NCBI GenBank assembly: GCA_009015555.1
Contig: GCA_009015555.1_3613.1
DNA from: a phage
Reading direction: 5' to 3' (one strand)
Length of the DNA: 64,000 nucleotides
Position numbers and translations under genes: made by a program. The notes beneath the pieces are model-generated. The model saw only the letters and a program-made list of their open reading frames with translations, was not told the origin of the DNA and ran no database searches. This document shows positions 2,983 to 50,114 of this stretch, one piece after another (position 1 is the stretch's first letter; each line of letters begins with the position of its first letter).

Positions 2983-5900
2983 ATGGCACAATATGAAGAT
3001 AAGGTCGTGGAAGTTCTGGTGACTCTCCCGGAACCGTCTGCGAGCACCTCTGGTGGTTCTGGTGCGCCTTTCACGGGCATCGAAACCCAAGACACCGTAT
3101 CCACCACACTGATTGGTGATGGTACTCAATCCTCCCCTCTGCAAGCAAACATCAACATCTCCCGTCGTTCAGGAAACCGCCTCCAAGTGGTGAGCACCTC
3201 CAGTGAGCAGGGTCTGTATGTTGCTGGCTCCGACACCAAGGTGTCTGCTAAGGATGGGAACACCGTAACTTACATCTCCGCCCAAGATGCGGCTAACGCT
3301 GGCAACCCGGCCCTGGAAGGTGTATACTCTGATCCGGTGAACGTGTCAACCACGTCACCGAAGAAGACTCTGGAAATTAAGGCTGATCCTACCGGGAAAG
3401 CCAAGACCCAAATCGACGTGATCGTTGATCCAGATTCCATGAACGCCCTGAAGGTAGGCACTGCTGGCCTGAGCGTTCCTGTTTCTGTGGCTCAAGACAA
3501 CACTCTGGAAATCCGCCAGGGTGCTCTGTACGTCCGCCCGCAAGAGACTAAAATCTCCCAAGACCCAAACAACAAGATTCAAGTCAAGTCTGACGGGATT
3601 TACGTTGACACTGTAAAAGGTGATAAAGGTGATACCGGGGCAACTGGCCCGGAAGGCCCTCAAGGCCCACAGGGAGACCCGGGTCCTCAAGGTCCGCAAG
3701 GCCCGCAGGGCGATAAGGGTGATAAAGGTGACACCGGGGACGTAGGACCAGCGGGGGCAACTGGCCCGGCAGGGGCACAGGGTGCTCGTGGCCCAGAAGG
3801 TCCGAAAGGCCCGGCTGGTATTGGTATCAACGTCATCGATCAGCTTGACGAAGTTTCTCAGCTTCCGGCTGTTGCGGAAATGGAACTGGGCGACACTTAC
3901 GTTATTGGACAGAATTTCTGGACCGTTGTCAACGAAAACAACGTGAAGCAGTGGAAGGACATCGGTAACTTCGCGGGGCCTGAAGGTCTGTCTGCTTATG
4001 AAGTTGCAGAAGGCGCGGGCTTCGTTGGTACTGTTGATGAGTGGCTGGAATCCCTGAAAGGGGCTGACGGTATCGGTCTGCAAATTCTTGGTTCCTTCCC
4101 TGACCCGTCCTATCTGCCTGATGAAGGTAACAAGCCGGGTGACTGCTACATCATCCAAGACATGATGTATGTGTGGACAGGTGATGAAGATGGGTGGCAG
4201 ACTGTAGGTCAGATTGGCCCAGAGGGTAAATCTGCGTATCAGGTATGGCTGGCTAACGGTCACACCGGATCTCAGGTTGACTTTCTGAACTCCCTGGTTG
4301 GCCCACAAGGACCGAAAGGTGATAAAGGCGACAAAGGTGATACGGGTGCTGACGGTACTAACGCCAACGCCATCAACCTCTTGGGTAAAGTCGCAGACGA
4401 AGCGAGCCTCCCGGCTGGCGCGGATGCAGGCGATGCCTACCTGATCGGAACTAGCGTTTGGGTCTCCACTGGCAATGACAACTGGGAAAACCTCGGTGCC
4501 TTCCAAGGCCCTAAAGGTGATCAGGGGGATGTCGGCCCTGCTGGCCCGAAAGGCGACAAGGGGGACGCAGGTGACGTAGGCAAAGACAACTACGCATTGG
4601 CGGTAGAGAACGGGTTCCAAGGTTCCCTGAGCGACTACCTGGCATCTCTCAAAGGTGCGAAGGGCGACACTGGCCCGACTGGTCCGCGTGGTCTTACTGG
4701 TCCGCAGGGTGTGAAAGGTGACGCAGGGGAAGGTCTTGCGATCCTCGGATCAAAAGCTGATCCTTCAGAACTACCTTCCAATCCAGTAACTGGTGATGCG
4801 TGGCTGATCGGAGAAGACCTGTACATCTTCAACGGCACTGCTTGGGAGAATGCAGGCCCTGTCCGTGGTCCGAAAGGTGACACCGGAGCCACTGGCCCGG
4901 CTGGAGCTAAGGGTGACAAGGGTGACCAAGGCGAGAAAGGCGACAAGGGTGACCAAGGTGATGTCGGCCCGGCTGGCCCGGAAGGTCCGCAGGGGACTGG
5001 TCTGACGCCGAAAGGTTCTGTTCCTACAGTAGCAGATCTTCCTGACCAAGACAACACCAAAGGCGACTTCTGGGCTGTAGAGGAAGATGGCAATGGTTAC
5101 GCTTGGGATGGGTTGCAGTGGGTTGTTACTGGCCTGACTCGCGGCCCGCAAGGCGAGAAAGGCGACAAGGGCGACAAAGGGGATAAAGGTGATCCGGGGG
5201 ATACTGGTGCCACAGGCGCAGGTGTTATTCCGAAGGGAACTGTAACCTCTGCTGCGACCCTGCCTCCTACCGGGAACACCGTCGGTGATTACTACGTCAC
5301 TGAGGATACTGGGACCGGATACTCTTGGAACGGGACAACCTGGGTTGACTTGGGAGTTGTGCGTGGACCGCAAGGACCGCAGGGCGACAAAGGTGATACC
5401 GGAGACCAAGGTCCGCAAGGTGTGAAAGGTGACACTGGTGCTACAGGCCCTCAAGGCCCGCAAGGTGACATCGGCCCGGGCGTTGAGATCATGGGTAAAC
5501 TCAACAGCACCTCAGAACTGCCTTCAACCGGGCAACTGGGTCAGGGTTACCTGATTGACGGCGACTTCTGGGGATGGACTGGCTCTGCCTACGAAAACCT
5601 TGGACGTATCCAAGGCCCGGTTGGTCCTACTGGTCCTACTGGTGACCCAGGCCCTACGGGTCCGCAGGGTGTCAAGGGTGATAAGGGTGATCAAGGTTCC
5701 TTGTGGATCGTGTTCGACCATGACCCGGGTCCTGCTGATGGTCGTGTAGGTGACTACTTCCTTAACTCCTCAACGTTGCAGTTCTTCCGCAAGACGAACG
5801 CAACCACTTGGGCACCGATGGGTTACATGGGTGGCGGTAACGTTTACGATTCCCCGAAAGACGGCAAGCAGTACGCTCGTATCGACGGGGATTGGGAACT

Positions 5901-47958: not shown

Positions 47959-48149
47959 TATTCCTCCACCAACTCGCCCGCGCCGTTGTACCGAGTGTTC
48001 CAGTCCCTCAGCACGGAATCGTACCCGTACTCAGATCTCTTTTCTGCCCCGCACCAGCCGCAGGTTATTACGTGCCTGTCTTGATAATGGGTATCTTCCC
48101 AGTAATCAGGTTGCTTACCACAGAAAGGGCATGGTTTAATATCAGTCAT
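47958..48149 (-). CDS. Lar-family-like restriction-alleviation zinc-ribbon protein
   Basis: Track ORF 47958..48182 trimmed to ATG 48149 (RBS GGAG); MTDIKPCPFCG...CGWCG resembles the Lar-family CPFCG signature. Confidence 0.4.
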   Translation of the reverse strand: MTDIKPCPFCGKQPDYWEDTHYQDRHVITCGWCGAEKRSEYGYDSVLRDWNTRYNGAGELVEE

Positions 48150-48516
48150 CGGACCACTCCTTGTCGTACCCGGCATCTTCACGGGTCATAGCGATATGCG
48201 GGGCATCGCACCCGTCATACCAGTTATCGACAAACATTTTCTCGGACCCTTCTACGATGAACAGGCCCGCCTGCCGTAATTCCTCTTGCAGGTTGCCAAA
48301 CATATTATCGTTCTGGTCGAAGATCACCAGGCCTGCATCATACGACGGTCCGTCTTCATGACGGTAAACGACCATATCACCACTGTAAGTGATCTTCAGC
48401 TTGGAATCGATCTCGTCAAGCCTGTCGGAAACCTCTTGCCAAGAATCCGTGTGCAGATTGCCCAGCGGAGGGTCTAACAGTGCAATGACGCCCACGGTTA
48501 CACGTTGCTCGCTCAT
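48142..48516 (-). CDS. hypothetical acidic protein
   Basis: 124-aa ORF with RBS GAGAGGAG. Confidence 0.5.
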   Translation of the reverse strand: MSEQRVTVGVIALLDPPLGNLHTDSWQEVSDRLDEIDSKLKITYSGDMVVYRHEDGPSYDAGLVIFDQNDNMFGNLQEELRQAGLFIVEGSEKMFVDNWYDGCDAPHIAMTREDAGYDKEWSDD

Positions 48517-48531
48517 GAATACTCCTCTCTA

Positions 48532-49185
48532 TTAATCAAGAACAAATGGTGCCGTCGGCACTGAGAAATTACCGTCGTAACGGGCCACCTTGCTGATACG
48601 GAATTGGTCAAGCCCACCAAACATAGTTTGTTCGCCGAAGCCGATTCTTGCAAAACGGCTTACGTCACTCCACCCTCCGGAAGCAAAGGACGTGGTGGTT
48701 GGTGCCACTTTACCGTTCAGATATAACTTCGTGACTCCCCCTTTGCTCACAATAGCCACATGTGTCCAGTTGGAAAGAGGCCAGTAGTTGGTACTAAAGC
48801 TCAAATAATTCTTCTGGTCCTGAAGATAAACCACACTTTGGTAAACCTTGAGGCAACTCTGAGTACCTGTCCCAAAATACATCCACCAGGAAGAGGCAAC
48901 TGAAGAGTTTCTTGACCAAAATTCGATAGTGAACTCGTCCTCTGGTTTGAAGACGAGATCTGTTTTCTCTGTCGCCATCATCTCAAAATAGCTGGCAGTG
49001 TTAGTACAGTCAAAGTATTTGTTGTTGAATTTTCCGTAACTTCCGGTGCCTACTGTTGCTACTTTTGAAAATTGCCGGGTAGGCTTGGCAACATCAATAC
49101 CTCCCTTGTCTGCTTGCAGGAGAAGGAGAGTTTTATCTCCCTTCATGCCGCCGCCTGCACCAGCCGCCAATAGGATTTCCTGCAC
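48532..49185 (-). CDS. N-tag family paralog A: ConA/LamG-like jelly-roll protein (N-terminus MQEILLAAGAGGG)
   Basis: 217 aa; GTG start with AAGGAG; LamG-type pattern (W.HVAIV...LYLNGK...DQFRISKVARY). Confidence 0.6.
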   Translation of the reverse strand: MQEILLAAGAGGGMKGDKTLLLLQADKGGIDVAKPTRQFSKVATVGTGSYGKFNNKYFDCTNTASYFEMMATEKTDLVFKPEDEFTIEFWSRNSSVASSWWMYFGTGTQSCLKVYQSVVYLQDQKNYLSFSTNYWPLSNWTHVAIVSKGGVTKLYLNGKVAPTTTSFASGGWSDVSRFARIGFGEQTMFGGLDQFRISKVARYDGNFSVPTAPFVLD

Positions 49186-49195
49186 TTTTTACTCC

Positions 49196-49867
49196 TTAAT
49201 GATTGAAGTGGTAAACAGCCCGGGCAAACCCCTCTGGGGTCAGCGATCGTAGCTGTTTGGTCCTCTCCGACTTACCACCTAAAAACTTCCAGCCCCAGAA
49301 GCAGCCTATATGAGGCACAGGCTTCTTGTCAGGCATCACAAAGCCATTCCCTACCCAGAGGCAAGTTTTCTTTGTGTAGGCGTTCCTGTACGGCATTTTT
49401 GGGTGGTACGAGCCTTCAATCTGACTCAAGTACCCTCCATACTCGTAAGGGTCGAAATAATGATCCGGCTTGCGCCACAGCGTACTCATCTTACCCACCG
49501 GGTTCTCGACCATCCAAGGACAGCCAAAAACGTTAGCAACACGCTCTACCATTTTAGCATTATCTATCGACTCCATCAACTCCGATTTCGTCCGGGTATG
49601 CTTGGCCCCGGCTACAGACAGGTTGGTGCAGCTTGGAAATGCAAAGATAATGTCCGGCTTCGGAATACCCGCTTTGGCAACGAAGGCTTCGAAGTCTTCA
49701 TCGATCCAACAATTCACATACTGGATGTTGGGGTGCTCCCGGCGCAGTTCATACTGACCATGATCAGCGGTGTCTGCATTAAAGCAGAACACCTTCCAAC
49801 CATTCAGGGCGTACTCATACCCCATGAAACCAGACCCATCAAACAGGCTCCAGACGACTTTAGACAT
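49196..49867 (-). CDS. DNA cytosine-C5 methyltransferase-like protein (short, divergent)
   Basis: Track ORF 49196..49966 trimmed to ATG 49867; motifs LFDGSGFMG (motif I-like), FPSC (Pro-Cys-type), MVENPVG (ENV-like). Confidence 0.35.
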   Translation of the reverse strand: MSKVVWSLFDGSGFMGYEYALNGWKVFCFNADTADHGQYELRREHPNIQYVNCWIDEDFEAFVAKAGIPKPDIIFAFPSCTNLSVAGAKHTRTKSELMESIDNAKMVERVANVFGCPWMVENPVGKMSTLWRKPDHYFDPYEYGGYLSQIEGSYHPKMPYRNAYTKKTCLWVGNGFVMPDKKPVPHIGCFWGWKFLGGKSERTKQLRSLTPEGFARAVYHFNH

Positions 49868-50114
49868 TACCAACCTCGCCGTGAATTGTGCAAGGGACAA
49901 ATACATCACGTCCGAAACCATCGCGCATCTTAACTTTTTGGTAAGGGAACAGGATGTCGTCTTCATCTGCCGCGATCATGTTTTCGCCGTGTTCGATGTA
50001 AAAACGAAGCTGCCGGATCAGATAGATGGAATCTATACCGGAAGAGTCCAGCAGGTCCTCTTCGTCGTAATCTGCCATGATGCGCTGCTTATCCAGACGG
50101 ACCCAATATTTCAT
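49860..50114 (-). CDS. hypothetical acidic protein
   Basis: 84-aa ORF with RBS GGAGAGAA. Confidence 0.5.
   Translation of the reverse strand: MKYWVRLDKQRIMADYDEEDLLDSSGIDSIYLIRQLRFYIEHGENMIAADEDDILFPYQKVKMRDGFGRDVFVPCTIHGEVGNV

Follow-up and report, generated by a model that had tools for sequence, protein, structure and literature searches.

A compact Dcm-like gene in a Certrevirus phage: a probable orphan cytosine-C5 DNA methyltransferase

Introduction

How can a protein of about 220 residues with almost no target-recognition domain select a DNA motif? This question is raised by a gene on the minus strand of a 64,000-nucleotide stretch of phage DNA (contig GCA_009015555.1_3613.1 of the NCBI GenBank assembly GCA_009015555.1; hereafter the window). 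A prediction made from the sequence alone (the original prediction) had described it as a short, divergent cytosine-C5 methyltransferase-like gene, either for an orphan enzyme that protects phage DNA or for a related base-modifying enzyme. We put the probability at roughly 85% that it specifies a compact orphan DNA cytosine-C5 methyltransferase of a phage Dcm-like family, PHROG 757, whose role would be to methylate phage DNA and so shield it from restriction. The feature is not new, since it already appears in the annotation of near-identical genomes and in a paper on Certrevirus (PMC7344957), and a member of its family has been characterised. We regard the finding as ordinary, because near-identical Cronobacter phages carry the annotation and a 49%-identical relative makes 5-methylcytosine (5mC).

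A short protein in a large phage family

49196–49867, minus strand: probable compact Dcm-like cytosine-C5 DNA methyltransferase gene, orthologue of CR3_gp067 of Cronobacter phage CR3 (from the open reading frame and its translation, the CR3 annotation, PHROG 757 and the fold)

The open reading frame (ORF) ends with a TAA stop at 49196–49198, and its product consists of 223 residues followed by the stop codon; the original prediction gave 224 because the stop codon had been counted. The ATG at 49867 is preceded by a GAGG Shine-Dalgarno sequence. It is the correct start since all homologues and the CR3 annotation begin with MSKVVW, and a longer reading of 256 residues from an upstream ATG at 49966 was rejected on the same grounds.

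The protein matches PHROG 757 ('DNA methyltransferase') over residues 1–222 with an E-value of 7.9e-85, and three further methyltransferase PHROGs match its N-terminal part weakly. Searches of Pfam and NCBIfam at E-values up to 10 returned no match. A sequence search of the PDB, run with the single sequence and with profiles of 26 and 94 sequences at E-values up to 10, yielded nothing significant; the best methyltransferase match was DNMT2 at a non-significant E-value of 0.38.

The family is very large; it counts 4588 clusters when 90% identity is the cut-off and 1821 at 50% (E < 0.001), and it comprises 1512 phage records. The main hosts of the phages that carry it are Escherichia, Klebsiella and Salmonella. 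Among full-length relatives, nearly all have 200–260 residues, so the short length is a trait of the family and not a truncation.

Conserved motifs

Conservation was counted in an alignment of 94 diverse family representatives. C80, E121, P123, P140, Y164, W171 and P179 are invariant in all 94, and nearly so are K166 and R207 (93/94 each), T168 and G213 (92/94 each) and N122 (90/94). The three motifs named in the original prediction, FDGSGFMG (residues 9–16), FPSC (77–80) and MVENPVG (119–125), are present in the translation in the claimed order, and the PHROG 757 match, the many relatives and the invariant residues show that they are no accident. With the elements that follow them they give this layout:

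49820–49843, minus strand: motif I, F9-D-G-S-G-F-M-G16, predicted S-adenosylmethionine (SAM)-binding loop after strand β1 (from sequence and close relatives)
49628–49639, minus strand: motif IV, F77-P78-S79-C80, where Cys80 is predicted to be the catalytic nucleophile (from conservation and hhalign)
49493–49513, minus strand: motif VI, M119-V-E121-N-P-V-G125, of the ENV type, with Glu121 predicted to protonate cytosine N3 (from conservation and hhalign)
49355–49378, minus strand: strand β7, Y164-T-K166-K167-T-C-L-W171, at the canonical place of motif VIII (from conservation and model)
49253–49348, minus strand: residues 174–205, a very short stretch at the usual place of the target-recognition domain (from model and conservation)
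49199–49249, minus strand: C-terminal motifs IX/X, R207-S-L-T-P-E-G-F-A-R-A-V...N222, two helices (from conservation and model)

Within motif I, D10-G11-S12-G13 is invariant among close relatives. Across the family the consensus reads [F/Y/C]-D-x-[T/S]-G; G13 occurs in 73/94 and G11 is rare, and FDGSG appears from its sequence to be the most canonical form of this motif in the family. In the non-significant DNMT2 match, HMMER pairs FDGSG with motif I. At motif IV the classical Pro-Cys is carried by the family consensus FPPCT (C80 in 94/94, P78 in 87/94, Pro at position 79 in 71/94), of which FPSC is a subclade variant. An hhalign comparison with the single E. coli Dcm sequence paired motifs IV and VI correctly, placing FPSC on FPCQ and ENP on ENV, at a probability below 2%; these statistics are too weak to stand alone, and the comparison was used solely for motif mapping, not as evidence of homology. 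Residues 174–205 are well conserved in close relatives (HIGxFWGWKxLGGKS) and variable family-wide. The C-terminal motifs are again well kept, with P211 in 90/94, A217 in 88/94 and N222 in 72/94 besides R207 and G213.

The distant members EC152, RCIP0098 and vB_KPAJ1 (extracts L003:3001-3693, L004:2800-3570 and L002:3001-3780) keep the Cys, ENP and Y-x-K. Both of their motif I glycines are described as lost, with the forms YDYTS, CDITG and FNRSR, and the RCIP0098 protein has a long insertion within the recognition stretch. Such sequences suggest that members of the family may differ in SAM binding and specificity.

Predicted structure

For the AlphaFold2 model, which was built from 26 sequences, the mean predicted local distance difference test score (pLDDT) was 84.9 and the predicted template modelling score (pTM) 0.85. 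Confidence is low mainly at residues 31–40 and in the loop after the Cys, residues 81–100, which corresponds to the flexible catalytic loop of C5 methyltransferases. The model has a class I SAM-methyltransferase fold nearest to the C5 methyltransferases, which is the fold that the original prediction implied. Foldseek retrieved C5-methyltransferase families at an E-value of about 3e-6, and in structure comparison DNMT3 was the best match (DNMT3B 13.1, 3g7u 12.5); 8yf3 scored no better than ordinary methyltransferases.

At the C-terminal end the model has a strand at 168–173 and helices at 201–207 and 212–222. No separate target-recognition domain was found in it: between strand β7 and the motif IX helix lie about 30 residues (174–205), mostly loop, so that this domain is almost absent. 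In M.HhaI the target-recognition region comprises roughly 80–90 residues, and the recognition domain of DNMT3 is likewise reduced.

A characterised homologue

Experimental evidence on the family comes from a preprint on retron Ec86 (bioRxiv 10.1101/2023.08.16.553469, cited elsewhere as Wang et al., Cell Rep 2024;43:114857), which describes escaper mutants from phage K42, a relative of KarlJaspers/Bas06. In all four of four escapers the 711-bp dcm gene was lost or damaged. Expression of K42 dcm led to more 5mC in the multicopy single-stranded DNA (msDNA) of Ec86, as measured by liquid chromatography and mass spectrometry (LC-MS), and the C82A/E128A/K175A/K176A mutant gave no such rise. K42 Dcm was thereby described as the trigger of the retron Ec86/Eco1 defence, acting on the DNA part of msDNA, and altering the CCTGG site of msDNA abolished the defence. 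K175 and K176 were treated as substrate-binding, but only within the quadruple mutant (all 10.1101/2023.08.16.553469).

The window protein can be connected to this work through gene aaroes_12 of Hanrivervirus aaroes, which is 711 bp long, encodes Cys, Glu, Lys and Lys at positions 82, 128, 175 and 176, and is 97.5% identical to the KarlJaspers (MZ501090) gene annotated 'Dcm-like C5 cytosine methyltransferase'. The window protein is 49% identical to aaroes_12 over its full length (E 3e-69), and its C80, E121, K166 and K167 align with C82, E128, K175 and K176 of K42 Dcm. Full-length identity at this level and the four aligned functional residues place it in an experimentally characterised family. 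Together with the fold and the family-wide conservation of Cys and Glu, this supports the earlier description as a short, divergent C5 methyltransferase-like gene.

Residues 174–200, where target recognition is expected, read HIGCFWGWKFLGGKS in the window protein and ENDKDNPGWAKTGGKS in the Hanrivervirus Dcm. As the recognition stretch differs, the target may differ as well.

The retron experiments were run in E. coli MG1655, which has a dcm gene of its own (b1961), and 5mC in msDNA was still low without the phage enzyme. Either the site in msDNA is out of reach of the host Dcm, or specificity or activity is different in the phage enzyme.

Proposed mechanism

How would such a compact enzyme work? 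Motif I (FDGSG), the C-terminal helix and N30, the residue that closes strand β2, would hold SAM. Cys80 would attack C6 of a flipped-out cytosine, Glu121 of ENP would protonate N3, and the methyl group would be transferred to C5. Lys166/Lys167 on strand β7 would replace the arginines of motif VIII, and the roughly 30 residues 174–205 would read the target sequence. The resulting 5mC at a short motif in replicating phage DNA could block some host restriction enzymes. Fold, motif conservation and family membership are results of the present analysis, and the formation of 5mC is that of the 49%-identical homologue in the preprint; from these we infer the activity of the window protein, its target sequence and its protective role.

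The locus and its relatives

At the DNA level the 4 kb around the gene share 96% identity with Cronobacter phage CR3 (Vequintavirinae, Certrevirus) and about 94% with CR8 and PBES 02, two other Cronobacter phages; the PBES 02 methyltransferase is 99.6% identical to the window protein. RefSeq lists CR3_gp067 as 'DNA methyltransferase', and GenBank gives it as 'putative DNA methylase 1'. The gene belongs to a long, tightly packed block of minus-strand genes, where it lies between those for primase/helicase and DNA polymerase, and this position suggests that it is probably expressed together with the replication genes. Its ATG overlaps the TAA stop of an upstream 84-residue ORF (49860–50114) by 8 nt, as is usual for the closely spaced, translationally coupled genes of the region. 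A scan for promoters and terminators gave nothing decisive for the methyltransferase gene.

No partner restriction enzyme is annotated near the gene in CR3, and a PHROG scan of ten flanking ORFs gave no match to one either, which fits the orphan enzyme put forward in the original prediction. Three genes downstream in the same block, a 74-residue ORF (47961–48182, minus strand) matches Lar-like restriction alleviation families (phrog_38103, E 1.4e-26). This would bring two anti-restriction functions close together.

Presence of the gene is patchy in Certrevirus. A 2020 paper on Pectobacterium phage CB7 reported a putative cytosine methylase, CB7_63, with PDB 3QV2 as best HHpred match, noted that Certrevirus also encodes a Dam-type adenine methylase, and found phiTE, DU_PP_I and DU_PP_IV to be without the cytosine methylase (PMC7344957). 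Our own searches agree with this pattern. The Pectobacterium relatives align with the window only upstream of the methyltransferase gene, and in Pectobacterium phage PcCB7V (MW367417.1) only the last 31 codons of the gene remain, at 84% identity (3501–3593 of the extracted locus). This remnant is in a different frame from a 62-residue ORF annotated 'N-type ATP pyrophosphatase'. The fragment looks like what is left after a deletion, and the annotation seems doubtful.

Three further ORFs may be mentioned. On the plus strand, antisense to the methyltransferase gene, runs a 207-residue ORF (49310–49933); we rejected it as a gene and regard it as a shadow of the conserved gene on the other strand, most likely without function. 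Directly downstream lies a 217-residue ORF (48535–49185, minus strand), for which the CR3 annotation uses a shorter start. Its sequence matches a domain that occurs within very large structural and baseplate proteins of the virion (phrog_3545, E 3e-43, with weaker matches to baseplate wedge families) and here stands alone among replication genes. Outside the region covered by the window, CR3 (JQ691612.1) encodes at 112070–112582 a second small 'putative DNA methyltransferase', CR3_204, of 170 residues, which by analogy with the Dam-type CB7_183 is probably the adenine methylase described for Certrevirus.

Restriction sites in the window

If the enzyme protects phage DNA, what do the restriction sites look like? 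Over the whole window (1–64000), 31 of the 64 six-base palindromes are wholly absent, compared with 1.1% of non-palindromic 6-mers (mean count 15.8). Among those missing are CTGCAG (expected 25), GGGCCC (27), AAGCTT (24), GGATCC, GAATTC and GTCGAC. CTAG occurs 4 times against 43 expected. CCWGG occurs 98 times against 199 expected, or 0.49 of expectation, and CCSGG 262 times against 197 expected. Restriction-site avoidance in the window is extreme. By analogy with K42, the enzyme may also come at a price, namely sensitivity of the phage to defence of the retron Eco1/Ec86 type.

Weighing the explanations

Several observations weigh against a Dcm-like DNA methyltransferase with a protective role. 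Similarity to canonical C5 methyltransferases is below significance at the sequence level, without a match in Pfam, NCBIfam or the PDB, and PF00145 is touched by only 4 of the 94 diverse relatives (best E 0.0067). Within the motifs, Ser79 rather than Pro precedes Cys80, motif VI reads ENP with Pro in place of the Val of ENV, and the QxRxR of motif VIII is replaced by YTKKT, with Lys and no Arg. Position 30, at the end of strand β2, is Asn here and Asp in 89/94 relatives; an acidic residue is usual at this place in SAM-dependent enzymes. As for the protective role, the depletion of CCWGG is not what full self-protection of this site would predict. In Drexlerviridae, the BASEL study saw no clear connection between the methyltransferases of phages and resistance to restriction, so the benefit of the enzyme may be narrow, and it found E. 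coli Vequintavirinae to be very restriction-sensitive. The CCWGG specificity of K42 Dcm was itself assumed from E. coli Dcm, with support only from the retron site mutants (10.1101/2023.08.16.553469). It is conceivable, though we think it rather unlikely, that the window protein does not target CCWGG and reads a shorter or relaxed motif, perhaps as a DNMT3-like dimer. With its tiny recognition stretch, the family would then be among the smallest self-sufficient DNA C5 methyltransferases and would represent a new way of target reading.

Could the same fold serve a different end? An enzyme with C5-methyltransferase fold and chemistry might act mainly on RNA, as DNMT2 does on tRNA. We consider this very improbable: the DNA methyltransferases DNMT3B and 3g7u score higher in structure comparison, the K42 homologue methylated the DNA part of msDNA, and the gene is located among DNA replication genes. 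Just as little speaks for an enzyme that moves another group, for example carboxymethyl from carboxy-SAM, or that opens a hypermodification pathway. Here 8yf3 scores no better than ordinary methyltransferases in structure comparison, no partner modification enzymes are annotated adjacent to the gene, and LC-MS detected 5mC for the K42 homologue, a result that also makes the 'related base-modifying enzyme' of the original prediction unlikely.

Slightly less remote, yet still improbable, is a protein that is catalytically weak or inactive in this phage and does something else, for instance DNA binding or regulation, or a gene that is being lost. The gene is dispensable in the genus, as its absence from phiTE, DU_PP_I and DU_PP_IV and the 31-residue 3' remnant in PcCB7V indicate; the subclade has Ser79 and Asn30; and the genome relies heavily on restriction-site avoidance. 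Against this, the frame is intact and nearly identical to the PBES 02 copy, every invariant family residue is retained, and Ser or Asp at position 79 together with Asn30 is fixed in a large clade of full-length proteins, which speaks for purifying selection acting on a functional enzyme. We rate all three alternatives low: the homologue acted on DNA, DNA enzymes score higher, and catalytic residues are strictly conserved in a gene that is intact and widely conserved. The preferred explanation hence is still a compact DNA cytosine-C5 methyltransferase.

Implications

What can be learned from a gene that is already annotated? A very large family is missed by Pfam PF00145 and by NCBIfam, and as a result its members are often labelled 'hypothetical' by automated pipelines; a curated profile would remedy this. 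The presence of the gene predicts sensitivity to retron Eco1-type defence, which is relevant to the choice of phages for therapy and biocontrol.

Comparison with known systems

The PF00145 enzymes M.HhaI, M.HaeIII, E. coli Dcm and DNMT3A/B are the classical reference, and the window protein is 100–250 residues shorter than these. They have QxRxR and ENV, whereas the window protein has Lys in motif VIII, ENP and a recognition stretch of about 30 residues. E. coli Dcm comes with a partner, Vsr; the CR3 annotation shows none of this kind next to the gene. Much closer is the Dcm of K42/KarlJaspers (Hanrivervirus, Drexlerviridae), which belongs to the same PHROG 757 family and is similarly compact, with 236 residues compared to 223 here. 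It comes from a 51-kb siphovirus, while the window protein comes from a 149-kb Certrevirus myovirus and, unlike this relative, has Ser79 and Asn30. The closest counterparts are the Certrevirus orthologues, that is CR3_gp067, the CR8 and PBES 02 copies and CB7_63. They occupy the same locus between primase/helicase and DNA polymerase, with 94–96% DNA identity over the region, are annotated as DNA methyltransferase or methylase, and show essentially no difference from the gene described here.
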